Source of the DNA: Turneriella sp.
GTDB lineage: Bacteria; Spirochaetota; Leptospiria; Turneriellales; Turneriellaceae
Assembly (NCBI GenBank): GCA_965279515.1
Contig: CBDIID010000003.1
Span: 3,744,001 to 3,808,000, forward strand
Direction: 5' to 3'
Length of the DNA stretch: 64,000 nucleotides
A program made the translations under genes and the position numbers. The notes beneath the pieces are model-generated. The model was not told where the DNA came from and ran no database searches. It was given only the letters and a program-made list of their open reading frames with translations. Positions 6,289-60,588 of the stretch are shown here, piece after piece (the stretch's first letter is position 1; the number at the start of each line of letters is the position of its first letter).

Positions 6289-6506
6289 AACGTGGAATTT
6301 ACAAGACGTTGATGGTGCGCCACACAATAATTGCAGGCTTATTTGGAAAGCCGCGTATCAAGCACCATCAATGTGTCGTAGGCGGCTGCGTTGCGCCTGA
6401 CCAAACAAACGCCCCGTTTGTCAGGCGTCAACGCATTTCAGGCCGCCGGAGACCGAGCACGCGAGGAGCTACGGCACCGCAGCGAGCGCAGCTTGTAAAT
6501 TTTGTT
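6289..6506 (-). repeat. attC-like site 6
   Basis: aatttacaag...cttgtaaattt compensatory variant. Confidence 0.9.
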
Positions 6507-6570
6507 GTCTGAAGTAATTGCGCCTGTGAGCCCGGCTAGGAGGGCCGGGCGAACCCTTAGTGCGACTGCT

Positions 6571-6665
6571 CATAACTGGTCATTTTGTCACTTCCAGAAA
6601 CAGGTTTTACACCTGAGAGATTCGGGGTATCTTAGGTCTTAATGGGGAGCAAGTTCTTATATGCT
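6571..6665 (+). repeat. Inner capture repeat, B part (CATAA...)
   Basis: cataactggtcattttgtcac...caggttttacacctgagag...ggagcaagttcttat. Confidence 0.8.
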
Positions 6666-7841
6666 CAAGCCAATTCTCTTGAATAGACTTTCTAATCTTT
6701 CTTCCGCCCATATTTTTAATTCGGGTTCAGTCTCAAAATATCTCTGATACGAATCATGAAATCCGGGAGCCAAATTTTTAATAAATCTCAGAAAATCTTC
6801 TCGAGTCCATTTTTCATGGGGCTTTCGAACAGCCTTGGATATTCGCACTCCATTTAAATCTGCGATGACTCGGGAAATATGCCGGGTAAGTTTGCCGTTA
6901 ACCATACTAACATTTCCAATAAAATCAATGTTTAATGTCGTCACCACACGCCCCTGAGAAAGGAGATATCCACTCAAATAACCAGCAATAGATCTTCGCC
7001 GGCGCCATTCACGACTTTCAAAATCCTGATACTCATCTTGCGCAGTAAGCCGACTGTTCCTGTTTTTGGCTCGTATTTCAAAAATGCGATTACAGCGATT
7101 CTGCCGCAGCATTTTATGAATTTCCGCAGAAGGGCGCTCGTCAGGAAAACCGGAGGCCATCACTGGCAATGCATAAGATCGAGCAAGGAGGAGATAAGAG
7201 ATGTTATCCGCTTCAAAATCCGAAGAATATGTAGCTTGGCCGGAAAAATCATGGTAATTAGCCGAGGTAATTTTTTGGAACTGGGTATGAACGAAGTTAT
7301 GCCAGAAATTCCTAAGCAAGTAGTTTGTTGTCCAATTTTTAAATGCAGCGCGATTGATTGCTGCAACCCCAAGTTTGGCGACAGGTTCGTCTGGAATCAC
7401 TTGGCCATAATAGAGAAAACGAAAAAAGGTTTCAGAAAGAGAATTTTCGATTCTCCGAATTTTATTCCGCAACGGAAAATCAAAAGATCCATAAAAAAAT
7501 CGATCAGCCATCTCGTTTATCCTTAACGTCGGATCGGACTGGATAAGGTTTACAACACAGTATTTATCCCATACATTATTCTCTTGAAAGAAAAGATCAA
7601 TATCCGCGTCAGATTTTGAGAGTAGATTCCTACCGAAGAATTCTGAAATTGAGTTGTTTTCATTCAGAGTAATACTCATCCTCTGCAAAGCCGATAAATA
7701 TGCGTTAACCAGATCCACTGGCCTTAAAATGATATCTTTGCCCAGGGCATCAACTTTGATTTGCTTAACCGTACTTTTAAAATTTATGTCTTGGGCCCAT
7801 CTCTCTAATGCCGCCCGAACCTCGTTAAATGAGCCGTCCAT
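6657..7841 (-). CDS. Hypothetical protein (stop codon lies in the inner repeat)
   Basis: 394 aa ORF with GGAGG upstream. Confidence 0.75.
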   Translation of the reverse strand: MDGSFNEVRAALERWAQDINFKSTVKQIKVDALGKDIILRPVDLVNAYLSALQRMSITLNENNSISEFFGRNLLSKSDADIDLFFQENNVWDKYCVVNLIQSDPTLRINEMADRFFYGSFDFPLRNKIRRIENSLSETFFRFLYYGQVIPDEPVAKLGVAAINRAAFKNWTTNYLLRNFWHNFVHTQFQKITSANYHDFSGQATYSSDFEADNISYLLLARSYALPVMASGFPDERPSAEIHKMLRQNRCNRIFEIRAKNRNSRLTAQDEYQDFESREWRRRRSIAGYLSGYLLSQGRVVTTLNIDFIGNVSMVNGKLTRHISRVIADLNGVRISKAVRKPHEKWTREDFLRFIKNLAPGFHDSYQRYFETEPELKIWAEERLESLFKRIGLSI

Positions 7842-8019
7842 CGCACCCTCCGTTCACAGACCATTTATTGACAAACTGTATGCATAATTGCAAATCCGCT
7901 GTCCAGAAAAACACAACCGGCAACTCCTCTGCTGATGCTGCGAGGTCTCACCTCCGGCCTCTATAAATGATGAAAATGCACTTAACGCGAGAAAGCTAGA
8001 AAACAGCCTTAACGAGTCA

Positions 8020-8051
8020 AATATAGCCCTTTAAGCACTAACTACCCATAA
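8020..8051 (+). repeat. Inner capture repeat, A part only
   Basis: aatatagccctttaagcactaactacccataa. Confidence 0.8.
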
Positions 8052-8126
8052 CTGATTCTTAGGGCGCAACAGATGTGCCGCGCCGACACGAGGTCGGCGA
8101 AGAAGAGAGGCGCAATTATTTCAGAC

Positions 8127-8337
8127 AACGTGGAAAATACCCGAATTGCGCCCCCGCGGGTGTAAAGTGTAAATAATCACGGCTTTATGTGACTTTCGCG
8201 GGAGCGCATTTGCCCGAAGCGCCTCGCGGCAAAGCACAGAACAAGCGTCCCGCTTGTGCTTTGTCCGCGATCTTTGGCGCGCAGGGCCGAGCACGCGAGC
8301 CAACGAAGTGCTCGCGGCGCAGCGGGTATTTTTTGTT
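8127..8337 (-). repeat. attC-like site 7
   Basis: Family consensus ends. Confidence 0.9.
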
Positions 8338-8529
8338 AGCCGCCGTTACCGGATTCGCGCGGCTGGCGAGCAACCCGAAGGTCAGCGAGATACTGTAGTT
8401 CGATATTATTAGTAACCGAGGAGTTGTCGCCAGGATCAAAGGCGTAAGCAGCGAAATCTGGTTGTACTCTCTGATAACAAATCCTCTTTTTCTCCCCTTC
8501 GGGGCGCGAAGGAGGTAATGGTGGCTAAC
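8335..8529. repeat. ORF-less cassette copy 3
   Basis: Near-identical to 2366-2559. Confidence 0.85.
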
Positions 8530-8769: not shown

Positions 8770-9336
8770 CTAAACGCCCCCCAGATCCATTAGTATAGAG
8801 TCTGTCAAGCAAGTCCAAGTTGCCTGCTTCTTTTGATTACCAGCCTCAGATGAAAGGTTTTCGATAATTTGTGCCTTTTCTTTTGGAGTAAGTTTCTTAT
8901 CTCTCAGAATTAGCTCTATTGCTGCTTCCACTTTTGGAGGTAAACTGGGTTCGTTTCTCGGGGCCCCGTTCTTAGCCTCAGATTTTATTGGCTCCGGGAA
9001 TTTTTTAGAATCTGCTGATCCATTCAGTGAAAACAGAATTTCTAATTCTGTTTTATCAAACCAAACTAAATTACAAGGGCAACAGACGTCTATTTGGAGA
9101 TTTAGGCTGTCATTATAAACCCGGCGTTTGTCCATTGCTGTTTTGCATTTCGGGCATAAAATTGATCTCTCTGGGATAAGAGCCGTGTCAGTTATGGAAA
9201 AGGCTATGGAACCACTTTGGGCTAAAAGTCTTTGCAATGAGCCTATATGGCCAGCACAAGTGAAGCAGGCTAAAGCCGTGCCATAAGGTGTCTTAATGGC
9301 TGCTAATTCGGTATGATCGCATGACGGACAATTCAT
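8770..9336 (-). CDS. zf-TFIIB-like double zinc-ribbon protein
   Basis: MNCPSC...CFTC...CPKC...IDVCCPCNLVWFDKTEL. Confidence 0.75.
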   Translation of the reverse strand: MNCPSCDHTELAAIKTPYGTALACFTCAGHIGSLQRLLAQSGSIAFSITDTALIPERSILCPKCKTAMDKRRVYNDSLNLQIDVCCPCNLVWFDKTELEILFSLNGSADSKKFPEPIKSEAKNGAPRNEPSLPPKVEAAIELILRDKKLTPKEKAQIIENLSSEAGNQKKQATWTCLTDSILMDLGGV

Positions 9337-12001: not shown

Positions 12002-12209
12002 AACGTGGAAAATACCCGAATTGCGCCCTCGCGGCTGTAAAGTGTAAATAATCACGGCTTTATGCGACTTTCGCGGGAGCGCATTTGCCCGTAGCGCCTC
12101 GCGAGCCCGCCAATGCAGGCCCATGGCCTGCGGGCGTAGCGATCTTCGGCGCGTAGGGCCGAGCACGCGACCCAACGTAGTGGTCGCGGCGCAGCGGGTA
12201 TTTTTTGTT
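12002..12209 (-). repeat. attC-like site 12
   Basis: Family consensus ends. Confidence 0.9.
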
Positions 12210-12400
12210 AGCCGCCGTTACCGGATTCGCGCGGCTGGCGAACAACCCGAAGGTCAGCGATATGCTGTAGTTCGATCTTATTAGTCACCGAGGAGTTGTC
12301 GCCAGGATCAAAGGCGTAAGCAGCGAAATCTGGCTGTGCTCTCTGATAACAAATCCTCTTTTTCTCCCCTTCGGGCGCGAAGGAGGTAATGGTGGCTAAC
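12207..12400. repeat. ORF-less cassette copy 4
   Basis: Near-identical to 2366-2559. Confidence 0.85.
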
Positions 12401-16738: not shown

Positions 16739-16802
16739 TCTGCGATGTATGCACCGCCATGGATGGCGGTGGAGGAACACCTGCTTTCCAACAATTGCCG
16801 AC

Positions 16803-17009
16803 AACGTGGATTTTACGCTGACGTTTTTTGACGCTTGTGTCATTTAATCAATTTGTAAAGCCGATTTGCGTCAAAAAATGTGGTCGTAGCGGCTCGCGGC
16901 GACGCGCGAAAACACACCTCCCGGTGTGCGCGTCGTCCGCGATCTTTGCCGCGGAGACCCGAGCACGCGACCCAACGAAGTGGTCGCGGCGCAGCGCGTA
17001 AAATTTGTT
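16803..17009 (-). repeat. attC-like site 18
   Basis: Family consensus ends. Confidence 0.9.
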
Positions 17010-17119
17010 CTCTGACGTAGTTGTGCCTGTGAGCCCGGGCATGGATGGCCGGGCGAATATGTATCAGACTCCTATAAATTCTTGACAGGCTCAAACAATT
17101 CATCAGTCTCTTGTCCGAT

Positions 17120-17380
17120 ATGAATGCAGAAACGATTCCGGCACATGCATATATTTCAAGTTCCCCAGAGATTTGTGGGGGAGAGCCAGTAATTTCTGGG
17201 ACACGAATGACAGTAAGAGCAGTGGTTCAGTATGTTTTGATTCAAGGTCTTACCCCCGAGGAGCTAGAACGGGAGTTTAAACAACTAAGTCTTTCACAAA
17301 TTTATGATGCTCTGTCTTATTACTATGACCACAAAAGCATAATCGACAAGTTTATAGCCGAGAACTCGGCCAAGAATTGA
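17120..17380 (+). CDS. DUF433 family antitoxin
   Basis: PEICGGEPVISGTRMTV...QIYDALSYYYDH. Confidence 0.9.
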   Translation: MNAETIPAHAYISSSPEICGGEPVISGTRMTVRAVVQYVLIQGLTPEELEREFKQLSLSQIYDALSYYYDHKSIIDKFIAENSAKN

Positions 17381-17718
17381 CCCCAATTAAGCTATATCTA
17401 GATGAAGACGTAAGACCTCTTCTGGCAGAAATTCTTACTGAGCGCGGTTTTGAAGCCACCCACACGCTGTTTCATGGGAATTCTGGGAAAACGGATTTGC
17501 AACAGCTGGAATTCGCTGCTCAAAATCAGCTTACTCTACTTACGCACAATATTCGCGACTTTGCCAATCTACATACTGTCTTTCTTAACGGAGACAAAAA
17601 ACACTTCGGAATTATTTGCGCACCGCAATTGAAATTGCCATTACTAGTCTCGCGCACGTTAGTCTTGCTTTCATCAGTCAATAAAGATTCTGCACGTAAT
17701 AATCTCCTCTGGATTTAG
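17377..17718 (+). CDS. DUF5615 PIN-like toxin
   Basis: LYLDEDV...D..QLEFA...LLTHNIRDF...HFGII. Confidence 0.88.
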   Translation: MTPIKLYLDEDVRPLLAEILTERGFEATHTLFHGNSGKTDLQQLEFAAQNQLTLLTHNIRDFANLHTVFLNGDKKHFGIICAPQLKLPLLVSRTLVLLSSVNKDSARNNLLWI

Positions 17719-17782
17719 GGAGCATCCTGCGAGTTGCGCCGCCATGGAGGGCGGCGGAGTAAAGGGCACAACTATGTCAGAG

Positions 17783-18745: not shown

Positions 18746-18931
18746 AACGCGGGTTTTACCTTGACGTTTTTGCTTGTGGCGTCTTCGTCACAAGCAAAAA
18801 TGTGCCCGGAGCGCCTGCCCGAGCCCGCCAATGCAGGCCCACTGGCCGGCGGGCGCAGGGCATCTTTGGCGCGGAGTGGCCGAGCACGCGACCCAACGGA
18901 GTGGTCGCGCGCGCAGCAGGTAAAACTTGTT
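18746..18931 (-). repeat. attC-like site 20 (short first hairpin)
   Basis: 186 bp variant. Confidence 0.85.
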
Positions 18932-18995
18932 GTCTGAAGTAATTGCGCCTGTGAGCGCGGCCAGGAGGGCCGCGCGAAATCCAATCTCAGCTACC

Positions 18996-19089
18996 CATAA
19001 TTTGTCATTTTGTTGCCTCAAGAACAGGCTTTACGCCTGAGAAATCCGGGGCTCCGGAGGTCTTTGTCGGGAATAGATTCTTATGTAGT
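18996..19089 (+). repeat. Inner capture repeat, B part
   Basis: cataatttgtcattttgtt...caggctttacgcctgagaa...ttcttat. Confidence 0.78.
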
Positions 19090-19174
19090 AAAGGACGCGG
19101 CAGCAGCACAGTTAAGATCGACGAACCTGCCACAATTATGAAAGTATCCACAGATTTCTCACTGGAGGCAATTA

Positions 19175-19597
19175 ATGCAAAAAATATTTCTGATAGGTTT
19201 ATTACAATTGAGCTTTGGAGCCGGATGCGTTCTATTTGCCGTTGAGAAAAAAATAAAAGTGCAGAACGGGGAAATCGAAATTCTTGGAGAAAAAATTCCG
19301 GTATATGGCAAGGCCGAAGAAGTTACAGTGACCTATAACGACGGTGACGGGGCCCGATCTCTACAAGTTGAGTATTACTTTCCAGGAAAGTCGACAGAAA
19401 AGGTTCTCAAGGACGTGGCTGCCTTCTACACCGGCAAAAGTATTTTTGGCACGAAAGTTGGAAAATTCAAGAAGAACAAATCGAACGGCGGGGCATATAA
19501 TTTTGAAAATTGCTCAAATAAGCCTGAGCTGTTGATCGTGATCTACGCCAATGAAACCCCTGGCCATGTGTACATTGGCGACATGTGTTTGCCTTGA
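19175..19597 (+). CDS. Putative lipoprotein / exported protein
   Basis: GGAGG RBS; MQKIFLIGLLQLSFGAGC. Confidence 0.7.
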   Translation: MQKIFLIGLLQLSFGAGCVLFAVEKKIKVQNGEIEILGEKIPVYGKAEEVTVTYNDGDGARSLQVEYYFPGKSTEKVLKDVAAFYTGKSIFGTKVGKFKKNKSNGGAYNFENCSNKPELLIVIYANETPGHVYIGDMCLP

Positions 19598-19599
19598 GG

Positions 19600-19833
19600 T
19601 CAACATAGGTCTGGCACAGCTGATTGTTGCCGGGCGCGGGGGACTATTCTGCGCATCCGTAAGCACCATTCGTACATTCTGGCTTCGCCAGCGCCCTCAG
19701 GTATGATATTGCAAATTCTCAATCCGTTTGAGAGTTGAAATCGTAGCCCTGCGATCTTGCCCCCCGGACCAAATGATACAAAGATACTTTGCACGTTCGA
19801 TGCACCTGTCATTTCGCAGGCCTTTCCCAAGAC
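19600..19833 (-). pseudogene. Possible 5'-truncated gene fragment at cargo edge
   Basis: Open frame runs up into the repeat end at 19834. Confidence 0.35.
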
Positions 19834-19953
19834 AATATAGCCCTTTAATGGGTTAACTGCCCATAAGGCGTCATTGTGTCTCCTGATAACAGGCTCTACA
19901 CCTGAGAGATTATGGGGCCTGTAGGTCCCAGGATAAGTAATTTCTTATTCACT
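19834..19953 (+). repeat. Inner capture repeat, complete A+B
   Basis: aatatagccctttaat...cataa...caggctctacacctgagag...aatttcttat. Confidence 0.8.
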
Positions 19954-20019
19954 TAACTTCAAGCTCGTTGCCGCGCCGACACGAAGTCGGCGCGTAACAA
20001 AGGCGCAATTATTTCAGAC

Positions 20020-20228
20020 AACGTGGATTTTACGCTGACGTTTTTTGACGCTTGTGTCATTTATTCAATCTGTAAAGCCGAATTGCGTCAAAAAATGTGG
20101 TCGTAGCGGCTCGCGGCGACGCGCGAAAACACACCTCCCGGTGTGCGCGTCGTCCGCGATCTTTGCCGCGAAGACCCGAGCACGCGAGGAGCTACGGCAC
20201 CGCAGCGGCGCAGCGCGTAAAATTTGTT
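20020..20228 (-). repeat. attC-like site 21
   Basis: Family consensus ends. Confidence 0.9.
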
Positions 20229-20958: not shown

Positions 20959-22293
20959 GGTTCAATATCAGAACATCGGTAACGAAAAGTCATCACGACA
21001 TCGGTAACAGTTCTGCCTCAGGCTTTGCCGTGGTTTCCTCCTGATTTGGTGTAAACAAATAATTGTTCCGATCGATGTAGCCCAATAGCAGGCTACCGAA
21101 GTAGACGTCGATGCGCATGTCGGCGATAAACCGGAGCCCGATCGGGTAGCCGTTAAAAGAATTGCCGATAAATATCCGGTGCTGCTTGTAGTTGGTGTAA
21201 CCGCGGTCATTTACGATGCGTACGATGCAATCCTCAGGGTAGGCGGGTAGTACGTCGCCAGTATACGGAATTTCAGATGGTAGGTAGAACTCTGATGGCG
21301 TCCTCATGCCCAGGGCTTCATGCGGTCGCACATTGTTGAAGTCTTCGCGCCACTGATCAAACGAAATCTGGTGAAGCTTTAGATCACCGCGAATGCGCCC
21401 CTGCAGTTCCGTGCGGATGTCTCTGTGCATACGCTCATGGCCACCATTCTGGGCTGGCTTTCCCGGATCAATGCGGTCCAGAGAAATTCCCAAGGACAGC
21501 CACCAGACTGACAATTTTGTCAGGCCAAAGAGTCCCCACGATGATGCGAAAGGAGTTCCGTTGTCAGAGCGAATAATTTCCGGCAGACCATAGCGTTTGA
21601 AGAGTCTGGCAAAGTGTTGTTTTACATTGGAAATATTGCCCTTTTCCAGTATCTGTATCGACAGGATGTACTTACTGTACTCATCGCGAACTGTCAGAGG
21701 TTCGCATTTCTCTGCATGTGCAGTATACCACCACCCCTTGAAATCAACCGTCCATATGTGATTGGGATGCGTCGCCTTTTCGCGAAGCATCAGCCTCTCT
21801 CCGGTTCTGCGGCGCTTCTTTCCTCTTGGCCTTGTCAGACCAGAGCGCGCCAGAAGGCGATCGACTGTAGGCACTGAAATATCGCCTTTGCGCTCGGGGT
21901 AAAGCCTGCAGAAGACCGCATAGATCTTCTTGGCTCCCCAGCGAGGCCTGTTATTCTTTATGCGAATAATGTCGCAGATTGTTTCTTCGTCAGTGCGGTT
22001 CGGATTGCCTCCTGGTTTTCGTGACAACTCCGCCAATCCAGCTAAGCCTTTTTCCAGAAACCTTGCCTTCCACTTGTACCCTGTCTTGGTGCTGATACCA
22101 AACTCGCGGCACAGCTCTGTGAAACTCTCTACGCCCTCCAGGGCGCGAAAGACAAAAGATCTTTTCTCTTCCATTTTGGTAACCTCTTTCCACGGCATTT
22201 GAGCCCCCTGCCGAAGGCAGGCAAAAGCTCTTTGCGAAGCAAAGTGTTACCGATGTCTTGATAGAAATGTGTTACCTATGTCGTGATAGTACC
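20959..22293 (-). mobile_element. IS481-like insertion sequence, copy 2 (1335 bp)
   Basis: Near-identical to 4939-6273; CGCA target duplication (20955-20958 / 22294-22297). Confidence 0.9.
20993..22198 (-). CDS. IS481-family DDE transposase
   Basis: Protein identical to 4973-6178. Confidence 0.92.
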   Translation of the reverse strand: MPWKEVTKMEEKRSFVFRALEGVESFTELCREFGISTKTGYKWKARFLEKGLAGLAELSRKPGGNPNRTDEETICDIIRIKNNRPRWGAKKIYAVFCRLYPERKGDISVPTVDRLLARSGLTRPRGKKRRRTGERLMLREKATHPNHIWTVDFKGWWYTAHAEKCEPLTVRDEYSKYILSIQILEKGNISNVKQHFARLFKRYGLPEIIRSDNGTPFASSWGLFGLTKLSVWWLSLGISLDRIDPGKPAQNGGHERMHRDIRTELQGRIRGDLKLHQISFDQWREDFNNVRPHEALGMRTPSEFYLPSEIPYTGDVLPAYPEDCIVRIVNDRGYTNYKQHRIFIGNSFNGYPIGLRFIADMRIDVYFGSLLLGYIDRNNYLFTPNQEETTAKPEAELLPMS

Positions 22294-28706: not shown

Positions 28707-28914
28707 AACGTGGAAAATACCCGAATTGCGCCCCCGCGGGTGTAAAGTGCAAATAAACACGGTTTATGCGACTTTCGTGGGAGCGCATTTGCCCGTAGCG
28801 CCTCGCGAGCCCGCCAATGCAGGCCCATTGGCCGGCGGGCGCAGCGATCTTCGGCGCGTAGGGCCGAGCACGCGAGCCAACGAAGTGCTCGCGGCGCAGC
28901 GGGTATTTTTTGTT
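28707..28914 (-). repeat. attC-like site 25
   Basis: Family consensus ends. Confidence 0.9.
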
Positions 28915-29105
28915 AGCCGCCGTTACCGGATTCGCGCGGCTGGCGAACAACCCGAAGGTCAGCTATATACTGTAGTTCGATCTTATTAGTCACCGAGGAG
29001 TTGTCGCCAGGATCAAAGGCGTAAGCAGCGAAATCTGGCTGTACTCTCTGATAACAAATCCTCTTTTTCTCCCCTTCGGGCGCGAAGGAGGTAATGGTGG
29101 CTAAC
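28912..29105. repeat. ORF-less cassette copy 5
   Basis: Near-identical to 2366-2559. Confidence 0.85.
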
Positions 29106-36413: not shown

Positions 36414-36469
36414 AGGTGTTTTCTTTCTCCAGTAAATTCAATAAAACGTATATCATGAAAATGGCAGAC

Positions 36470-36676
36470 AACGTGGATTTTACGCTGACGTTTTTTGACG
36501 CTTGTGTCATTTAATCAATTTGTAAAGCCGATTTGCGTCAAAAAATGTGGTCGTAGCGGCTCGCGGCGACGCGCGAAAACACACCTCCCGGTGTGCGCGT
36601 CGTCCGCGATCTTTGCCGCGGAGACCCGAGCACGCGACCCAACGAAGTGGTCGCGGCGCAGCGCGTAAAATTTGTT
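36470..36676 (-). repeat. attC-like site 33
   Basis: Matches site 18. Confidence 0.9.
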
Positions 36677-36786
36677 CTCTGACGTAGTTGTGCCTGTGAG
36701 CCCGGGCATGGATGGCCGGGCGAATATGTATCAGACTCCTATAAATTCTTGACAGGCTCAAACAATTCATCAGTCTCTTGTCCGAT

Positions 36787-37047
36787 ATGAATGCAGAAAC
36801 GATTCCGGCACATGCATATATTTCAAGTTCCCCAGAGATTTGTGGGGGAGAGCCAGTAATTTCTGGGACACGAATGACAGTAAGAGCAGTGGTTCAGTAT
36901 GTTTTGATTCAAGGTCTTACCCCCGAGGAGCTAGAACGGGAGTTTAAACAACTAAGTCTTTCACAAATTTATGATGCTCTGTCTTATTACTATGACCACA
37001 AAAGCATAATCGACAAGTTTATAGCCGAGAACTCGGCCAAGAATTGA
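36787..37047 (+). CDS. DUF433 family antitoxin (duplicate)
   Basis: Identical protein to 17120-17380. Confidence 0.9.
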   Translation: MNAETIPAHAYISSSPEICGGEPVISGTRMTVRAVVQYVLIQGLTPEELEREFKQLSLSQIYDALSYYYDHKSIIDKFIAENSAKN

Positions 37048-37385
37048 CCCCAATTAAGCTATATCTAGATGAAGACGTAAGACCTCTTCTGGCAGAAATT
37101 CTTACTGAGCGCGGTTTTGAAGCCACCCACACGCTGTTTCATGGGAATTCTGGGAAAACGGATTTGCAACAGCTGGAATTCGCTGCTCAAAATCAGCTTA
37201 CTCTACTTACGCACAATATTCGCGACTTTGCCAATCTACATACTGTCTTTCTTAACGGAGACAAAAAACACTTCGGAATTATTTGCGCACCGCAATTGAA
37301 ATTGCCATTACTAGTCTCGCGCACGTTAGTCTTGCTTTCATCAGTCAATAAAGATTCTGCACGTAATAATCTCCTCTGGATTTAG
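37044..37385 (+). CDS. DUF5615 PIN-like toxin (duplicate)
   Basis: Identical protein to 17377-17718. Confidence 0.88.
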   Translation: MTPIKLYLDEDVRPLLAEILTERGFEATHTLFHGNSGKTDLQQLEFAAQNQLTLLTHNIRDFANLHTVFLNGDKKHFGIICAPQLKLPLLVSRTLVLLSSVNKDSARNNLLWI

Positions 37386-37449
37386 GGAGCATCCTGCGAG
37401 TTGCGCCGCCATGGAGGGCGGCGGAGTAAAGGGCACAACTATGTCAGAG

Positions 37450-37660
37450 AACGTGGAAAATACCCGAATTGCGCCCTCGCGGCTGTAAAGTGTAAATAAT
37501 CACGGCTTTATGTGACTTTCGCGGGAGCGCATTTGCCCGGAGCGCCTCGCGGCAAAGCACAGAACAAGCGTCCCGCTTGTGCTTTGTCCGCGATCTTTGG
37601 CGCGCAGGGCCGAGCACGCGAGCCAACGAAGTGCTCGCGGCGCAGCGGGTATTTTTTGTT
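37450..37660 (-). repeat. attC-like site 34
   Basis: Family consensus ends. Confidence 0.9.
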
Positions 37661-37851
37661 AGCCGCCGTTACCGGATTCGCGCGGCTGGCGAGCAACCCG
37701 AAGGTCAGCGAGATACTGTATTTCGATCTTATTAGTAACCGAGGAGTTGTCGCCAGGATCAAAGGCGTAAGCAGCGAAATCTGGCTGTGCTCTCTGATAA
37801 CAAATCCTCTTTTTCGCCCCTTCGGGCGCGAAGGAGGTAATGGTGGCTAAC
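37658..37851. repeat. ORF-less cassette copy 6
   Basis: Near-identical to 2366-2559. Confidence 0.85.
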
Positions 37852-41147: not shown

Positions 41148-41249
41148 CATAATCAATACTCCGACAGTTTAGCCCAATCTGAAACAGGCTTTACACCTGA
41201 GAGACCATGGGTGCCATAGATCCCAATGGGGAGCAATTTCTTATATATT
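41148..41249 (+). repeat. Inner capture repeat, B part
   Basis: cataatcaatactccgac...caggctttacacctgagag...ggagcaatttcttatatatt. Confidence 0.8.
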
Positions 41250-41539
41250 CAAAGATACTCAATACTCTCGAAAAACAGGGTTTGTTGCGGCGCGAACGCT
41301 CTTCCGAGGACAAGCGGGGCTTTTTTGCGACAACTACCGATTTAGGGAGCGTCGAAGTGCGCAAGGCTTGGATCATCTACAAAAAGGGCATTCACGTATA
41401 TTTTGAGAAAGCTTTGACGACGCAAGAAGTGCAGCAGCTGCTGGTTAACTTGCCTAAGCTCAGGAAAATATTTCAATATAAAGATTCCGCGCCCGTTACG
41501 CATAGGCATTATTGTGGCTTATATTTTGCTATCTCCTAA
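41250..41539 (+). pseudogene. 5'-truncated MarR-family regulator
   Basis: SKILNTLEKQGLLRRERSSEDKRG...T..G wing motif starts right at the repeat end; N-terminal helices missing. Confidence 0.7.
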
Positions 41540-49841: not shown

Positions 49842-49843
49842 AA

Positions 49844-49976
49844 AAAATAGTTCTTTAAGGCCATATTTAACTTCTCATAATCAGTATTCCGACCGATGAC
49901 CTCACTCTGAAACGGGCTTTACACCTGAGAGATAATGGGTTCTGTAGGCCAAGTTGGGAGTAATTTCCTGCATGTT
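49844..49976 (+). repeat. Inner capture repeat, complete A+B
   Basis: aaaatagttctttaagg...cataatcagtattccgac...cgggctttacacctgagag...ggagtaatttcc. Confidence 0.8.
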
Positions 49977-50042
49977 TAATGCCGAACACGTTGCATCGCC
50001 GACACGAGGTCGGCGAATAACAAAGGCGCAATTATTTCAGAC

Positions 50043-50250
50043 AACGTGGATTTTACGCTGACGTTTTTTGACGCCAGTGTCATTTATTCAATCTGTAAAG
50101 CCGATTCGCGTCAAAAAATGTGGTCGTAGCGGCTCGCAGTGGCGCGCAAAAGCAAGCGTCCCGCTTGCGCGACATCTGCGATCTTTGCCGCGGAGACCCG
50201 AGCACGCGAGGAGCTACGGCACCGCAGCGGCGCAGCGCGTAAAATTTGTT
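50043..50250 (-). repeat. attC-like site 39
   Basis: Family consensus ends. Confidence 0.9.
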
Positions 50251-50312
50251 GTCTGAAGTAATTGCGCCTGTGAGCCCTGGCAAGGAGGCCAGGGCGACGG
50301 CAGATAAATGCT

Positions 50313-50407
50313 CATAACTTGTCATTTTGTCACCTTCAAAAACAGGCTTTACACCCGAGAGATTCGGGATTCTGTAGGCCTTAGTGGGGAGTAATTTCCT
50401 ACATATT
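50313..50407 (+). repeat. Inner capture repeat, B part
   Basis: 95 bp identical to 55611-55705. Confidence 0.9.
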
Positions 50408-50625
50408 AATATAAATCCCGCGTGGGCAGGCGTAGCGCATTAATGGTCACCTTGACTTGAGACGGGAATATGAATTATCGCACCGAGAAACAGACCCCGC
50501 GATCTGTCACTGCGCACAACAGAATTTAGGATTCTGCACCAGAATACCAGTCGGATTCGAGGATTGCGCTGCGGAAAAATGATTCGTCCGGAGCAGCGTA
50601 ATCGGGCTTTACAGACGCCACGCGC

Positions 50626-52236
50626 TTGTTGAGGTTGTTGACCCCCGTATCTATCATGCTGCTCCGATCAATGAGTATCATATTTCTCCTCGGCGTTGCG
50701 CCGGTTTTTTCCGCAGACTTAAGGCTTGAAATACCGCAACCCTATGATTTGGGTAAATTTTGCGCGTATACGCTCCTACCGAATGCAGCGGCGAACGTTG
50801 AAGAGGTTCTGACACTACCCACAGCGCAGTGGAAGCCAATACATTCCAGCGTGATTTCCCTGGGGGTAAACCCCAGTATCGTATGGCTACGTTGCCGCCT
50901 CGTCAATCAATCCGTTGAGCAAAATTGGTCATTGGTTTCGCAATACAATTTTGGCCGAAGCATCGAAGCATTTTTCGTGACCGGACGGGAAAAAATGCCA
51001 CAGGCGGCGCAACTACAGCCAAATACCAAATCGTTCTGGCAGCGCAACGACGCCTTCGCGCTACCGACCAAAAGCGCGCAGCCAATCGAAATAGTGCTGC
51101 GCTACGAATCTGATTTAGCGAAAGTAATGTATTTTCAGGTGATGCCTGAACGGCTGCTCACCGGACAGGAAAATCAGGAGAGCGCATTTTTTCTTGTCTT
51201 TACCGCCGTTTTAATCTTGTTCATACTGCTGAATCTGTTGCTCGCGGTAAGCCTTAAATCCGTTATTCCGGTATTGTATTCGCTTAGCATGCTGACCTAC
51301 TACCTGTACCAAATTATCCAGCTGGGTTTCGGTCCCGTGCTATTTTATCCTGACCGGCCTGCCATAAACGGAAACATGGTAAGCATTTCAGCGGGCATCT
51401 CCATAATTTTTTATCAATTATTTTTCCAGCGTCTGTTACAGTTCAAGACGCTCGTTCCGCGATTGAATCTTGTGATGAATGTAATAAGCGTCGTTTCTGG
51501 CGTGTATATTTTTGCCACTGCTTTCACGCTTCTGCCTATTGGTATTTTGCAAAAAATCGGCCGGCTTTTGTTTTTCACAGCGGCAATGGTTGTCTTTTCT
51601 GCGGGATGGATTGTTTACCGCAAGCGCTTCAGGCCAGCTATATATTCGATCTACGGTTACGCTGTGATCTTGCTCTGCCAGAGCTTCTATTTTGCTGTGA
51701 TGTCGGGCTTTATCGATTTTGGCGGTTATTTCGTGAAAATAATTCTACCCTTGGGTCAAACGGTCGAGTATCTGTTTTTCTTTACCACGTTGTCTCTGCG
51801 CCTTAGGGACAAGGCGCAAATCAACCGCCTACGCCAAATTACCGAAGACGAAGAAATAACCCGCGATCTGCAAACCGATGAAAAACTAAGGTTATCCGAA
51901 GACAAGGCTGCCAAAGTGAGCGACGAATTACGCGAAATTTTCACGCGGGAAAAAATTTTCTGTGACGAAGACCTTTCGCTCGATCGTCTTTCTGCCATGC
52001 TGCATATTACACGGCATGAATTATCCGATCTATTGAGCAAGCGGTTTGGCACAAATTTCTACGATTTTATCAACCGGTATCGGGTTGAAGAGGCGCAGAG
52101 ACTGTTACGCGAAAATCCAGAAGAAAAAATACTGGATATCGCCATGGCGGTTGGCTTCAACAGTAAGTCGACGTTCAATAAGGAATTCAAAAGAGTCACG
52201 GGAAAAACGCCTAAGGCAACGCGGAATCCGTCCTAA
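50626..52236 (+). CDS. 7TM-DISM sensor fused to AraC-family HTH
   Basis: Extracellular domain, about 7 TM helices, FYDFIN.YRVEEA...IA..VGFNSKSTFN..FK; start uncertain. Confidence 0.88.
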   Translation: MLRLLTPVSIMLLRSMSIIFLLGVAPVFSADLRLEIPQPYDLGKFCAYTLLPNAAANVEEVLTLPTAQWKPIHSSVISLGVNPSIVWLRCRLVNQSVEQNWSLVSQYNFGRSIEAFFVTGREKMPQAAQLQPNTKSFWQRNDAFALPTKSAQPIEIVLRYESDLAKVMYFQVMPERLLTGQENQESAFFLVFTAVLILFILLNLLLAVSLKSVIPVLYSLSMLTYYLYQIIQLGFGPVLFYPDRPAINGNMVSISAGISIIFYQLFFQRLLQFKTLVPRLNLVMNVISVVSGVYIFATAFTLLPIGILQKIGRLLFFTAAMVVFSAGWIVYRKRFRPAIYSIYGYAVILLCQSFYFAVMSGFIDFGGYFVKIILPLGQTVEYLFFFTTLSLRLRDKAQINRLRQITEDEEITRDLQTDEKLRLSEDKAAKVSDELREIFTREKIFCDEDLSLDRLSAMLHITRHELSDLLSKRFGTNFYDFINRYRVEEAQRLLRENPEEKILDIAMAVGFNSKSTFNKEFKRVTGKTPKATRNPS

Positions 52237-52376
52237 GGGCATTCTCTGCCTGCGCTCTGCCCACGGCGGCGGTTTGTGATGAAAAAAAAGAGCCTCCCTA
52301 CGTCCGACTGGAACCAAACGGTCGAAATCCGCCGGATTCTGCTGTATTAGATGAGCACCAAAAAACAGGAGAATCT

Positions 52377-53111
52377 ATGAAAACATACTTTACTTTGCTC
52401 ATCGCGCTCACTCTCGCAGCTTCGCTGCCAGCTGCGCCCAAGAACGCCGCAAAACCAACGAAGCCAGTAGCCACCGAACCGCCGGCAGCCGCAGCCGTAC
52501 CGACGCCTCAGCCGACGCCAAAAACAGAGGGAGGCTTGGTCATGAGCCTGGCATTCTACGGTGCGTATAACATCGCAAGCTCAGACCTCTTCACCTTACC
52601 CGCGGGAAGCACGGCCAGCTGGACCACATCGGGTGGTGGCGTTTTAGGCGCAGGCGCTAATTTTATGATCGGCAGCCAGCTGATCCGCGGTGGGGTAAAT
52701 GTTGCCTATTCTCCCATTGGCGAATACCGGCAAGGCGGTTCGACGGTATTTCTTAGGTACTTACCCATCGAAGGCTTACTGCGTCTTTATCCGATCGCCG
52801 GCCTTTATGTCGGCGGCTTGGCTGGGTACGCGCTTGATCTGAGTTCGGCCGTGGTTTCGGGCAGCGGTTCGCTGACAAAAACCGACGGCATAACGTATGG
52901 CGGCAGTCTCGGCTACCTGATCAAAAATGGGCCCGTCGACTTAGATCTCGGCGTTGATATTCGGATGTTATCGTTGTCAGCAACCGCCCCTACCGGTGGC
53001 AGTAATTTTTCCCTAACCAGTCTTGACGCGACCAGCGTTGCAGCGGGTGTGAGCAAAACCTACACAATTTTGAATATTGTTCCACGCGTCGGCTTTAATT
53101 ACAAATTCTAA
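52377..53111 (+). CDS. Outer-membrane beta-barrel protein
   Basis: AGGAG RBS, signal peptide, Pro-rich linker, C-terminal GFNYKF. Confidence 0.75.
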   Translation: MKTYFTLLIALTLAASLPAAPKNAAKPTKPVATEPPAAAAVPTPQPTPKTEGGLVMSLAFYGAYNIASSDLFTLPAGSTASWTTSGGGVLGAGANFMIGSQLIRGGVNVAYSPIGEYRQGGSTVFLRYLPIEGLLRLYPIAGLYVGGLAGYALDLSSAVVSGSGSLTKTDGITYGGSLGYLIKNGPVDLDLGVDIRMLSLSATAPTGGSNFSLTSLDATSVAAGVSKTYTILNIVPRVGFNYKF

Positions 53112-53168
53112 ATTGTGCACTACAGGTTTGAGTTGACACCATTTTTTCGTAAGGTAATGAAGGAAAAT

Positions 53169-53585
53169 ATGAAATCAGAAGCAACCACGCAAGCAACAGC
53201 AGTTCGCGCCGTTCAGGCCTGGCTGGTAATTTGTAGCGGGATCTTTTTCTGCCACTGCGGTGCTACGGCAGGTCTTAATGCCCGTAACGTCGACCATCCG
53301 GTGATGGTGGGCAATGTTCGCCGCATAGGGGCACGGCCTGCCGGCGAATTGAGAAATAGCCAACCCCTGTCGTTTAAGAACACCCAAAACGGTGACTACA
53401 GCACACTCTCGCCCGGCCGGCTCAGCGGCTACCTGCTGAAGAATCTGGGATACAAAAACAGTGTGGTGCAAATCAACAGCATCGGGTACAAAAATACGGT
53501 CGCGAACTATTTTTTTACCTGGTCGGTACGCGATGAAGCAAGTATCGAGGGTGAAGGCGGTCTGCAATCCGAAGGGGGCAGATAG
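53169..53585 (+). CDS. Putative lipoprotein
   Basis: Hydrophobic segment then Cys; in operon. Confidence 0.6.
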   Translation: MKSEATTQATAVRAVQAWLVICSGIFFCHCGATAGLNARNVDHPVMVGNVRRIGARPAGELRNSQPLSFKNTQNGDYSTLSPGRLSGYLLKNLGYKNSVVQINSIGYKNTVANYFFTWSVRDEASIEGEGGLQSEGGR

Positions 53586-53607
53586 AATGCTCTCGTTGAC
53601 AGGCAAA

Positions 53608-54021
53608 ATGAAATACCTAATGGTCATGTGTATTGTCATCGTGCTAAACTGCGCTGGCAGTCAGGGTGCGGTACGATTTGATCATTTGGATTATCCCGTT
53701 TCTATGAGCGGCTTTTTGTATGGCAAGAATAACGAAATTCTCATGAAAGATCTGCACATGCAAGAAGTCGGAAAATTCTCGCTGACCCGGCGGCAGTGGA
53801 GCATCGGTTACTCACTCATACCGCTGAATGGCAAAGAGGCTTTCGCCGAGGCCATGAACCAGGCTATCATTGCAGCCAAGGGTGACGCGATGGTCAACCT
53901 CGAGATCGAGACGGCTAGTTGCTCATGGAACAGTGTGCCGTACCTTTTTCTGTTGCCCATTTGGCCCGGTTGCGCTGATGTCAAACTGACCGCAGATATT
54001 ATCAGGGAGAAACGACCATGA
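53608..54021 (+). CDS. Putative lipoprotein
   Basis: MKYLMVMCIVIVLNC lipobox; GDAMVNL. Confidence 0.68.
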   Translation: MKYLMVMCIVIVLNCAGSQGAVRFDHLDYPVSMSGFLYGKNNEILMKDLHMQEVGKFSLTRRQWSIGYSLIPLNGKEAFAEAMNQAIIAAKGDAMVNLEIETASCSWNSVPYLFLLPIWPGCADVKLTADIIREKRP

Positions 54022-54431
54022 AATTTGCCAGCACAATTCACCGGACGATAGTGCGCGTTATTTTTTTCTGCCTGCTTTCAGCACTCGCCGCGCAAGTGCC
54101 GCAAGATGTATTGTTGCTTGAAGAAGAACAGGTGAATATTTTTCATTTGCACCGAAATTGTAAATCTCTCGGTGTGATCGAAACGGAAAGGTCATGGCCG
54201 TATAAAAAAACAGAATATGCATCACTCGAAAAATCCAGGATCGCAGAAGAAGCAATTATGCGCGACATGGGCTATCGGGCCGGGGCAAACGCCATGCAGT
54301 TCTTAGGTATGAAATATAGCGTCAGAACGATCGGTCGGAAAATACCGGAATTCAGAATTGACATTAGCACCGATATTCGCTACTGGAAATGTGACCCCAA
54401 AACGCTCGGTATGCTAAAGCGCAGAGAATGA
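54018..54431 (+). CDS. Hypothetical exported protein
   Basis: ATGA overlaps; C..LG ... GAN motif. Confidence 0.62.
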   Translation: MKFASTIHRTIVRVIFFCLLSALAAQVPQDVLLLEEEQVNIFHLHRNCKSLGVIETERSWPYKKTEYASLEKSRIAEEAIMRDMGYRAGANAMQFLGMKYSVRTIGRKIPEFRIDISTDIRYWKCDPKTLGMLKRRE

Positions 54432-55231
54432 TGCTGCGCGTATTTGTCGGCGTCTTTCTGTTCGCATGCCTCGCCGCATGCAATGCGCGCCCGTCGTTCG
54501 ATAAGATGATTGTGCGCCAACCGGGGTCGCGAAAGGCGATTGGGAACAAAGTCTTCGTCGATCAGGCGACCGGCGGCGGCGAAAACGACGCCCTGTCGCC
54601 AACGATCGCCGGCGAAATCAAAATTCCCAACGAAGAATTCACCAAGGCTGTTGAAACGTCGATACGCCAATCCGGTTTTTTCTCAGAGTATGCCGCGCGC
54701 TTTGAAGAAGAGTGGGGGCTGCGGGTGCTCATCGTCAACGTTGAAACGCATATGGACATGCTTGCGGCGACCATGACAGGGCACGTGACGGCGAGATATT
54801 CCGTTTTTTACAAGAATAATCCGGCATACGAATTTGAGTTTCAGACTAAGGGTGCCGCGACCGATTACCTCGGCAGCTATGGCGGTCTGCGCAAAGAGGC
54901 GGTTGAAAAAGCGACGCAGCAAAATATTGCACAATTTTTGCAGCACGTCGTAACCTATGATTTCTCCGATATTACCGAAGCGCCTGTGCAAGAAAAGCTA
55001 CGGCAGAAAAAACAAATTCGCATCGTTGGGCGCATTTTCCAGATTAACGGACGCAAGGTCGATATCATACCCGCCGCTGGGGCGCTCAAAGTGGGAAAAA
55101 TTTACACTATCTTGCGCAAGGACAGGCCAGTCGCAACTGTAAGGGTAGATACCGTCTTCCATACCAAGTGTGCCGGAAAAATCTTGACCGGCGGCGCGGC
55201 GATCGCACCGGATATGTCTGTTGGACAGTGA
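54428..55231 (+). CDS. Putative lipoprotein
   Basis: LAAC lipobox; ATGA overlap. Confidence 0.68.
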   Translation: MMLRVFVGVFLFACLAACNARPSFDKMIVRQPGSRKAIGNKVFVDQATGGGENDALSPTIAGEIKIPNEEFTKAVETSIRQSGFFSEYAARFEEEWGLRVLIVNVETHMDMLAATMTGHVTARYSVFYKNNPAYEFEFQTKGAATDYLGSYGGLRKEAVEKATQQNIAQFLQHVVTYDFSDITEAPVQEKLRQKKQIRIVGRIFQINGRKVDIIPAAGALKVGKIYTILRKDRPVATVRVDTVFHTKCAGKILTGGAAIAPDMSVGQ

Positions 55232-55315
55232 CGGCGTTTCTGCTTTTACTATAACTGTCCGTACCCAAAATTAATTCTGGCTGACGCCCTTACCGATGCG
55301 CCGGTTCATGCATCT

Positions 55316-55597
55316 ATGGCACAAAACATCCACGCATTCACCGCCGCCAACATTTCCGGCAAAGAAACAAGCCTCGCCGATTACAAAGGCAAAGTTGTTT
55401 TGATTGTGAACACCGCCAGCAAATGCGGCTTCACACCGCAGTTCGCGGGTCTCGAATCGCTGTACGAAAAATACAAAGACCGCGGTCTCGTGATTCTTGG
55501 CTTTCCCTGCAACCAATTTGGCGCGCAAGAACCCGGTACATCTGATCAGATTCAGGAATTCTGTCAGCTCAACTACGGGGCAAATATAGCACTTTAA
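55316..55597 (+). pseudogene. Glutathione peroxidase, 3'-truncated by the inner repeat
   Basis: [32 protein letters not shown], then abruptly ANIAL* encoded by the repeat; C-terminal half (WNF motif) absent. Confidence 0.88.
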
Positions 55598-55705
55598 GGC
55601 ACTAACTACCCATAACTTGTCATTTTGTCACCTTCAAAAACAGGCTTTACACCCGAGAGATTCGGGATTCTGTAGGCCTTAGTGGGGAGTAATTTCCTAC
55701 ATATT
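55583..55705 (+). repeat. Inner capture repeat, complete A+B (123 bp)
   Basis: aatatagcactttaaggcactaactacc-cataa-...-ctacatatt. Confidence 0.9.
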
Positions 55706-55775
55706 CAATATCGCTGTTCTCGTCAGAGCGCGCGCACGGATGCGCGCGGATAACCAAGGCGCAATTATTTCAGAC

Positions 55776-55984
55776 AACGTGGATTTTACGCTGACGTTTT
55801 TTGACGCTTGTGTCATTTATTCAATCTGTAAAGCCGATTTGCGTCAAAAAATGTGGTCGTAGCGGCTCGCGGCGACGCGCGAAAACACACCTCCCGGTGT
55901 GCGCGTCGTCCGCGATCTTTGCCGCGGAGACCCGAGCACGCGAGGAGCTACGGCACCGCAGCGGCGCAGCGCGTAAAATTTGTT
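55776..55984 (-). repeat. attC-like site 40
   Basis: Family consensus ends. Confidence 0.9.
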
Positions 55985-56049
55985 GTCTGAAGTAATTGCG
56001 CCTGTGAGCTCGGCCACGGATGGCCGAGCGAATCCTTCGTAGGACTTCT

Positions 56050-56143
56050 CATAACTGGTTGTTTTCCCCCCCTGTCAATCGGGCTTTACAGCCGATAGGT
56101 GAGGTTTAAGTTCCCCTTAGTGAGGAGCAATATCCTATATATT
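56050..56143 (+). repeat. Inner capture repeat, B part
   Basis: cataactggttgtttt...cgggctttacag...ggagcaatatcctatatatt. Confidence 0.8.
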
Positions 56144-58316: not shown

Positions 58317-58334
58317 CCGAACACGTGTCTCAAA

Positions 58335-58409
58335 AATATAGCCCTTTAAGGGCTGACTTTCCATAACTGGTTGTTTTGTCCCCCTGTAAGGAGCAATATT
58401 CGAGATATT
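58335..58409 (+). repeat. Inner capture repeat, A plus internally deleted B
   Basis: aatatagccctttaaggg...cataactggttgtttt...ggagcaatatt. Confidence 0.8.
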
Positions 58410-59184: not shown

Positions 59185-59393
59185 AACGTGGATTTTACGC
59201 TGACGTTTTTTGACGCCTGTGTCATTTAATCAAATTGTAAAGCCGATTTGCGTCAAAAAATGTGGTCGTAGCGGCTCGCGGCGACGCGCGAAAACACACC
59301 TCCCGGTGTGCGCGTCGTCCGCGATCTTTGCCGCGGAGACCCGAGCACGCGAGGAGCTACGGCACCGCAGCGGCGCAGCGCGTAAAATTTGTT
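59185..59393 (-). repeat. attC-like site 42
   Basis: Family consensus ends. Confidence 0.9.
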
Positions 59394-59454
59394 GTCTGAA
59401 GTAATTGCGCCTGTGAGCCCGGCTAGTAGGGCCGGGCGAAGAAGAATTAATGCC

Positions 59455-59550
59455 CTTAACCGCTCATTTTGTCATATGAAATCAGGCTTTACACTTGAGG
59501 GATTCGGGATTCTATAGGCCTGATTCGGGAGCAATTTCTTATATAATATT
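59455..59550 (+). repeat. Inner capture repeat, B part
   Basis: cttaaccgctcattttgtca...caggctttacacttgag...ggagcaatttcttatata. Confidence 0.78.
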
Positions 59551-59573
59551 TCTCACCAAAGCGAAGTAACGAT

Positions 59574-60236
59574 ATGAAGCTCAAAATGATTCTATTTGCA
59601 ATGTTGATTCAGAATGGTATGATGTCTGCTCAAGAAGCGAAAAAGCCCGACCAAAAAATTTTGAGGGCCATTGATTCCGGAAACATACAAAAGGTAAATT
59701 CGGCGATAAAAGAAAACCCGTCATATCTCAATCAAGCCATTGAATTCTGGGGCACACCCCTAATTTTTGCAGTGAATAAAGATTTTCTAGCGGCGGTTGA
59801 AAGTTTAGTGAAAAGCGGTGCCGATGTGAACGGACGCGACACAGAAGGACGCACGCCACTAATGTGGTGCCCTATGGATGTGGGGCCGTTCCGTGGCTGT
59901 GGGAGGAACCAGAAGACGCCTCAGAGGAAACGCCAGGAAAGCGAGAGATGTGATACCAAGCTTGCCCGCCTGAAAAAAAACAGAGAGCGTATTCTCATAT
60001 TTCTGCTGAAATCGGGAGTCGATATTGCCGCTGTTGATAACCAAGGACGAACTGCGCTCCACTACGCAGCACGAATGGACGATTTAGACATGGTTAAGTT
60101 TTTGCTGAAAAACGGTGCGAATCCGCACGCACGGGATAAGAGAGGCATGACTCCCGCGAGCGAGACGGCGCCTGAGGGTACCGCGTCGGGCTATGACGCG
60201 GGGAGAATTAAAAAAATCCTGAAGCATAGTCTATAG
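59574..60236 (+). CDS. Ankyrin repeat protein (exported)
   Basis: GTPLIFAV, GADVN.RD.EGRTPL, GRTALHYAA. Confidence 0.92.
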   Translation: MKLKMILFAMLIQNGMMSAQEAKKPDQKILRAIDSGNIQKVNSAIKENPSYLNQAIEFWGTPLIFAVNKDFLAAVESLVKSGADVNGRDTEGRTPLMWCPMDVGPFRGCGRNQKTPQRKRQESERCDTKLARLKKNRERILIFLLKSGVDIAAVDNQGRTALHYAARMDDLDMVKFLLKNGANPHARDKRGMTPASETAPEGTASGYDAGRIKKILKHSL

Positions 60237-60261
60237 AGCGACATATTATGTATGAAAGAAA

Positions 60262-60294
60262 AAAATAGTCCTTTAATGCTGTAACTAGCCACAA
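60262..60294 (+). repeat. Inner capture repeat, A part only (degenerate)
   Basis: aaaatagtcctttaatgctgtaactagccacaa. Confidence 0.65.
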
Positions 60295-60371
60295 TGAGTT
60301 CATCCTGTCGCAGCAGATTTGCTGCGTCGCCAAGGATGGCGACGAAGTACAAAGGCGCAATTATTTCAGAC

Positions 60372-60588
60372 AACGTTGGATTTACCTGACGTCGATGGTG
60401 CGCCGCACAATAAATGCCGTCTTCTTACGAAAGCCGCTCTTGGCGCGCCATCGATGTGCCGCAGGTGGCTGCGTTGCGCCCGCCAATTAAGCTCGACAGA
60501 GCGCGGGCGTCAACGCATTTCAGGCCACCGGAGGCCGAGCACGCGAGGAGCTACGGCACCGCAGCGAGCGCAGCAGGTAAATCTTGTT
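60372..60588 (-). repeat. attC-like site 43
   Basis: Family consensus ends, diverged middle. Confidence 0.88.

Follow-up and report, generated by a model that had tools for sequence, protein, structure and literature searches.

Which enzyme, if any, acts on the dif-like sequence that recurs in the gene cassettes of this locus, and what is the longer repeat in which it lies? The window, as we call the whole 64,000-nucleotide stretch analysed (C3:3744001-3808000 of genome G000), consists of genes in an array with repeats of about 210 bp between them. A previous sequence-only reading had interpreted the core of another, inner repeat as a XerC/D-like or other tyrosine-recombinase crossover site, and the sequence that it gave, ACTACCCATAA-CTTGTCA-TTTTGTCACCT, sits at 55605-55633, the start proposed (55600) being five bases too early.

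55605..55633, + strand: dif-like site with 11-bp left arm, 7-bp spacer and 11-bp right arm; 3 of 22 arm positions mismatched against the host dif

The variants described for 6565, 19856 and 58356 read letter for letter as they had been given. With up to one mismatch allowed, CATAA-N7-TTTTGTC has seven matches in the window where 0.51 would be expected, a count reached in 0/100 shuffles.

Comparison with the chromosomal dif of the host, which had been suggested as a check, shows that the site is far closer to the dif of this lineage than to that of E. coli. The lineage dif is ACTTCCCATAA-6-TTATGTCACAT, with a right arm of the form TTATGTC(A/T/G)CAT, and ACTTCCCATAA-6-TTATGT was present in 24 of 31 related genomes and in 12/13 of the genus, with at most one match per genome in the control; the label dif is based here on the form of the site, its conservation and a copy number of about one per replicon, chromosomal position forming no part of that basis. 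When the host dif was given a 7-bp spacer, 19 of the 22 arm positions at 55605-55633 were equal (10/11 plus 9/11; 0/100 shuffles), and with a 6-bp spacer it did not match the site. Hence the Xer/dif-like character stands, as do the 7-bp spacer and the weaker right arm. Two 11-bp arms resembling those of the host dif are thus present, while the 6-bp central region of chromosomal dif is replaced by 7 bp; this makes it less probable that the site is a dif, and leaves the probability that it works like an Xer site as it was. A 6-bp spacer does occur in the mimics of distant relatives of the element described below. As for the enzymes, XerD is encoded in G000 above the cut-off, and the best XerC match reached 297.5 bits, below the cut-off of 335. 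A genome search with an E. coli-type dif gave 55 matches vs. 52 in the control, and was useful just for pointing to candidates; four lone ACTNCYCATAA matches elsewhere in the genome were set aside, all of them having no right arm.

As separate observations on dif in this genome, the dif of G000 is interrupted by a 6.4-kb element (C3:298000-304430; L022:8000-14430), which encodes Rep (PF23343) along with some 15 small unnamed ORFs. It looks like a small single-stranded DNA prophage integrated by Xer, and the left arm at its far end is unusual. On the 38-kb contig C1, a dif-like site that is perfect but has a different spacer occurs twice (4774 and 28249), 23.5 kb apart, among housekeeping-like genes not found on C3; C1 could be a second replicon, a contaminant or an assembly repeat.

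The sequence-only reading had further stated that the bases behind CATAA match between the left and right copies of one cassette, and took this as the spacer homology of a crossover. The match was found for 50313/55611 and 56050/58362 and nearly so for 41148/49876, and 18996/19862 is the poor pair that had been described (TTTGTCA vs. GGCGTCA). It extends well beyond the spacer, over about 100 bp (50305-50407 against 55603-55705, 97% identity), and spacers match within a cassette because a whole unit of about 125 bp was duplicated; simple duplication is the very explanation that the reading had named as speaking against itself, and the matching is no sign of crossover homology. To judge from these alignments, the site does not stand alone as a crossover site of cassettes; it is part of the unit 55582-55705, which was compared with the following copies in the window.

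55582..55705, + strand: complete oriIS-end unit of about 125 bp, starting AAATATAG and ending TTCCTACATATT, followed by CAAT (sequence comparison)
50313..50407, + strand: left unit copy, 5'-truncated, starting at CATAA 15 nt behind the left hairpin
56044..56072, + strand: dif-like site, left copy of the next cassette
58332..58384, + strand: right copy of that next cassette (start and dif-like site), internally deleted
41148..41250, + strand: left copy of a variant that lacks a dif-like right arm, with a start-less marR gene directly behind
49842..49980, + strand: right copy of the 41148 variant, which is also found behind tnpA in L093; ends approximate
18990..19085, + strand: left copy of the 18929-20021 cassette; end approximate
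19833..19952, + strand: right copy of the 18929-20021 cassette; ends approximate
6565..6665, + strand: left copy of the 6504-8128 cassette
8019..8054, + strand: right copy of the 6504-8128 cassette, ending 3 nt past CATAA (CTG, common with the left copy)
59449..59547, + strand: left copy of the 59391-60373 cassette, the right copy of which is again the 5' part alone

Sequence comparison with related genomes indicates that the unit is almost certainly the ori end of an IS91-family rolling-circle element, an identity that had been overlooked. Matches to the unit were obtained in 13 of 14 genomes of the genus, many of them covering the cassette end alone, and the copy at 55582..55705 is about 83% identical to units standing behind tnpA in G011. 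There, the 126-bp unit is present in six copies, three empty in tandem and then three behind inserts of about 0.6-1.8 kb, and G005 has four copies. In G011, in G005 and at two places in G013, the transposase gene (PF04986 plus PF14319) ends some 110 bp upstream of the first unit, and the unit stands behind tnpA in every aligned autonomous copy. Directly after ori, NAAN was read at 5/6 junctions in G011, 4/4 in G005 and 4/7 in G129, together 13 of 17 array junctions. Relatives have the Y2_Tnp and zinc-binding transposase domains of the IS91 family, with ori downstream of tnpA and a tetranucleotide target abutting it without target duplication. On the putative terIS side, the homology shared by 12 regions upstream of tnpA starts at TG(A/G)G, followed by a GAAAA..TTTTC hairpin. 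Repeated ori units, in 2 to 7 copies, were also found behind more distant transposases in 7/7 examined loci, taken from the best matches with flanking sequence out of 37 of the 401 genomes of the phylum. The units are either empty or separated by 0.5-11 kb of other DNA, giving arrays of the form tnpA-unit-(insert-unit)n. A transposase query found no tnpA in G000, implying that the copies in the window are non-autonomous, and a search of viral contigs gave no unit start. Elsewhere, a lone unit lies outside any cassette at G000:C3:3244005-3244107 (L076), beside a duplicated 93-bp gene end, and in two ori units of G002 (L078:7585-7640 and 9085-9112) a short palindrome is inserted into the left arm of the mimic.

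Between the two unit copies of the 50313/55611 cassette lies the following DNA.

50408..55581, + strand: captured DNA with an AraC-type regulator, five unnamed ORFs and the 5' portion of a gene for glutathione peroxidase
55316..55581, + strand: the glutathione peroxidase gene (gpx), cut by the unit (Pfam GSHPx, positions 1-88 of 108)

The place at which gpx is cut reads GT|NAAN in 7/7 homologues, and the marR fragment opens with CAAA, which fits a NAAN break; the actual gpx junction is one base away from the prediction, which counts against the model. The captured piece is 83% identical to the gpx of the genome itself and 72-86% identical to that of relatives, and among the captured DNA are genes that were cut and come from another strain of the genus. 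The breaks of the cargo map to the ends of the unit and not to the dif-like site. These data bear on the proposal that the site is a stand-alone Xer or tyrosine-recombinase crossover site which swaps cargo in the manner of dif modules, the matched spacers being the record of the crossover. Such a site would explain the resemblance to dif, and the half copies of the 6504-8128 cassette have exactly 3 nt beside the left arm in common. On the other hand, the repeat is about 100 bp long, ends at an IS91 ori and stands behind tnpA in aligned autonomous copies, the cargo breaks at unit ends, and the spacers differ in 18996/19862 and in G001:C45. We consider this proposal very unlikely and, as the sole mechanism, largely refuted.

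Inserts of other arrays also contain recognisable genes. In G005 (L074:9020-9820), an erm(F)-like methyltransferase gene starts immediately after an ori unit within the array (67% DNA identity over 390 bp), and among the plasmid records searched for a close donor of this insert 0/16 reached 80% coverage. That a relative's element captured an erm(F)-like gene points to a working gene-capture device in environmental spirochaetes. Two IS91-array inserts (L073:9700-11500 and L074:9950-11400) contain fragments of integron cassette arrays along with attC-like repeats, one of which is interrupted in the middle by the unit.

The cassettes that hold the units have ends of their own.

50248..50312, + strand: conserved left shell end (GTTGTCTGAAGTAATTGCGCC, hairpin, 15 nt)
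55728..55778, + strand: conserved right shell end (hairpin, inverted repeat of the left end)
55775..55985, - strand: attC-like repeat of about 210 bp separating cassettes (folding z = -7.24 for 55762-55995)

The two shell ends are common to about 20 cassettes (20 forward plus 17 reverse matches vs. 0 in the control), inside which the repeat of the sequence-only reading lies, and the shell has the attC-like folded repeats and complementary core ends of an integron cassette. In G013, the left shell end, tnpA, unit, 3.2 kb of cargo, a further unit and the right shell end follow each other in this order, and a second copy in the same genome has one unit plus cargo. The left shell end was intact before tnpA in 6/12 upstream regions, two of these rows being apparently identical, and in L093 the right shell end is directly behind the unit. 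By this comparison of gene order, the cassettes of the window are the G013-type structure minus tnpA. The left shell end has CAT(A/G)A 15 nt behind its hairpin, and of the 14 cassettes that have no tnpA but a left unit that can still be recognised, six join exactly at this CATAA of the shell; the remaining 8/14 junctions are inexact, five being displaced by 3-6 nt and three retaining sequence between both CATAA sites. This count omits 32020, 20217, 22505, 27662, C3:3734588, 90838 and 169914, which are too decayed or have no unit.

The integron-like setting raises the question of whether the site is used by IntI, either as a copy of attI or as a secondary site, as CATAAC is GTTATG on the working strand of the array. 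Several copies indeed read CATAAC, and IntI-like genes exist in the genus; two IntI-like proteins are encoded in G000, below the TIGR02249 cut-off, the candidate integrase matching in two pieces. Homologues of the IntI-like gene end the array in G013 and G002, and the gene of G000 is not adjacent to the array. Against a role of IntI, CATAA is followed by C, T or G, with no invariant AAC/GTT, the arms match dif, and the unit has no resemblance to the attI side, the stretch of G013 that separates the intI-like gene from the last cassette being unlike it. IntI, which had also been named as a candidate for binding assays, is consequently an extremely improbable acting enzyme. We know of no settled account of how genes come to be integron cassettes in the first place.

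Several other features of the array are recorded here in their own right. About 45 repeats like that at 55775-55985 are branched, about 210 bp long and have core-to-stem spacers differing by two bases; cassette ends are complementary across up to 20 bp; and a second cassette array is present at C3:90-170 kb. Before the start codon of the IntI-like gene, L003:2570-2592 contains the direct repeat GAAC-N7-GAAC, which we take to resemble an SOS-box type. An rve (integrase-core) insertion sequence with 47-bp inverted ends is present in two copies (4946-6268 and 20966-22288), both near cassette ends, with similar ends at C3:90.7 kb and in G001. A cassette of about 190 bp with no listed ORF occurs in at least five near-identical copies (2357-2555, 8326-8525, 12198-12396, 28903-29101 and 37649-37847), and a cassette of the DUF5615 toxin-antitoxin type occurs twice with about 99% identity (16793-17780 and 36460-37448).

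If the unit is an ori end, is the dif mimic inside it used by host Xer? In the 15 aligned units, the spacer is always 7 bp long (15/15), its letters varying while the arms are conserved, and the left arm, which we take by analogy with E. coli to be the XerC-binding one, equals that of the host dif in 4/15; this alignment left out L093 and the 41148/49876 pair, and its near-identical rows (G005/L099/L095 and L097/L101) make the counts overstate independence. The mimic persists across relatives of the transposase with 43-62% identity: behind 60%-identical transposases it is kept as 11-6-11, and behind 45%-identical ones it is 11-6-11 too, with a GATAA arm in 4/6 readable copies, one further row being illegible at the site. 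In the hosts G357, G327 and G377 dif itself reads CCGATAA, and the arm of the element follows in 2/3; the third, G377, has CACATAA in the element, which counts against tracking of the host. Also speaking against Xer use, the active-looking variant L093 and the 41148/49876 pair of the window have no dif-like right arm, and the shell contributes no more than a weak half-site, whose spacer homology to the unit amounts to 0-1 nt in tnpA-bearing copies. At the loci examined no unit was fused to a chromosomal dif half, and none of 18 listed unit starts coincided with a dif position. The contigs of four runs, three of them spanning the stretch and the metagenome run covering parts of it, gave no excision joint between 50313 and 55611, contigs being prone to drop rare forms; inverted repeats lie where contigs showed joints at cassette ends, and these joints were given no weight. 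A folded single-strand site of the CTX type was set aside, as in three of four copies the folding of the unit was not better than that of shuffled sequences. A 29-bp dif-like site has been described as sufficient for XerC-only integration of phage VGJ (PMC4246890). From the alignments, we conclude that the site is probably kept for binding of XerC/D, while the idea that Xer caused the losses of tnpA is tentative, falling somewhat short of an even chance, with short-homology deletion as its rival.

The reading that we favour, with a probability of roughly 0.6, is that the oriIS end of a Spirochaetota IS91-family element carries a dif mimic, that TnpA would capture DNA and that host XerC/D would carry out resolution or deletion at the mimic. 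The anatomy, the arrays, the junction motifs, the resemblance to dif and the stages with and without tnpA are what was seen in the sequence. By analogy with IS801 and IS91, TnpA would start at ori and likely stop prematurely at the left end of the unit itself; the mini-element so formed may then insert at T|NAAN targets; read-through from the mini-element would collect the upstream flank, and the captured piece together with its unit would join a resident unit. With less confidence, XerC/D could bind the mimic and thereby resolve multimers and cointegrates of rolling-circle transposition, or integrate circles, and a XerC-side exchange with the half-site in the left shell end might remove tnpA in some cassettes, fixing the cargo.

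The same anatomy could also have arisen if the unit is an IS91 ori in which the dif-like stretch is a binding site for TnpA or a host factor, or a dead relic. The arrays would then be formed by TnpA at NAAN or by RecA over the 125 bp, and tnpA would be lost by short-homology deletion. Duplication of the whole unit accounts for the spacer match, the target tetranucleotide lies behind ori, the arrays need no Xer, one variant has no right arm, and the inexact joints prevail among the 14 junctions. IS801 is described as producing right-end miniatures and as taking flanking DNA along by one-ended transposition (PMC3189936). Such a relic or TnpA site is difficult to reconcile with the agreement of most arm positions with the host dif, with conserved arms around a free spacer of fixed length, with the 11-6-11 form kept at 45% transposase identity and with the C-to-G change of the host dif being followed in two of three hosts. 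We regard this alternative as unlikely, though it retains appreciable weight.

A more far-reaching version of the favoured reading is a two-enzyme cassette factory, in which an IS91-type element, itself an integron cassette, uses its unit to bring kilobase-sized foreign pieces into a repeat-insert array and host XerC/D, acting at the dif mimic, docks or resolves these pieces and in the end excises tnpA; this we find doubtful. If it were true, a finished cassette would decay to an ordinary-looking one, and the approximately 20 cassettes of the genome would represent stages of this process. From sequence, the structures can be lined up as a shell that holds tnpA and the unit; a shell in which cargo between two units follows tnpA; a tnpA-less shell; and shells where remnants are fading, a series that provides a testable route for one cassette subfamily. 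The dif mimic in the end of a rolling-circle element inside cassettes suggests one way in which new cassettes may form, and if an insertion sequence does borrow host XerC/D through a dif mimic, two mobile-DNA chemistries would be linked.

In a literature search that took in few subscription papers, we found neither a dif site in an IS91 end nor arrays of this kind, and in the available text of PMC9771954 ISCR and dif modules are treated separately. IS91 is described as inserting next to CTTG or GTTC, both of them in the reading of the other strand, and as often overrunning terIS (PMC13181058). Like IS91, IS801 and IS1294, as far as the accessible accounts describe them, the element has a Y2_Tnp/Zn_Tnp_IS91 transposase, a downstream ori and a tetranucleotide target without target duplication. 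IS801 gives right-end miniatures (229, 360 and 679 nt) and carries upstream DNA (PMC3189936), and the element here likewise has right-end miniatures and would take its upstream flank along. Unlike the IS91 family as portrayed in those accounts, the element has one fixed miniature of about 125 bp with a conserved left end, each copy bearing a dif mimic, and its copies accumulate in repeat-insert arrays downstream of the parent. In ISCR28, two oriIS surround a gene, and this sandwich resembles our element both in gene capture between two ori ends and in the association with attC (PMC12772301); unlike ISCR, up to seven ori units stand downstream of tnpA, the element is a cassette with shell ends, and a dif-like site is present.

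Sedentary integrons and attC clusters without an adjacent integrase are similar in having structured repeats and mostly co-oriented genes, and a further likeness to sedentary integrons is that in G013 and G002 an intI-like gene stands where the array ends; unlike these, the repeats here are about 210 bp long, and the integrase scores below TIGR02249 with a two-piece match and is not adjacent in G000. The site pairs of pdif modules are inverted. In the Acinetobacter pdif modules, dif-like sites flank exchangeable genes, as they do here (PMC9771954). Unlike pdif, the sites of our cassettes are direct repeats within a longer transposon end, have a 7-bp spacer and enclose cargo whose ends are set by the transposon. 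The attP sites of the IMEX VGJ, TLC and CTX are alike in their host-dif-like arms, 29-bp length and weaker right arm, and a XerC-only exchange with a replication-resolved junction is a model taken from these sites (PMC4246890). Unlike an IMEX, the mimic lies in an insertion-sequence end and not in a phage, its spacer differs from that of dif, and no copy was seen at a chromosomal dif. By the features compared, the element is thus a member of the IS91 family, and its site is at best like an IMEX or plasmid Xer site and not dif itself.
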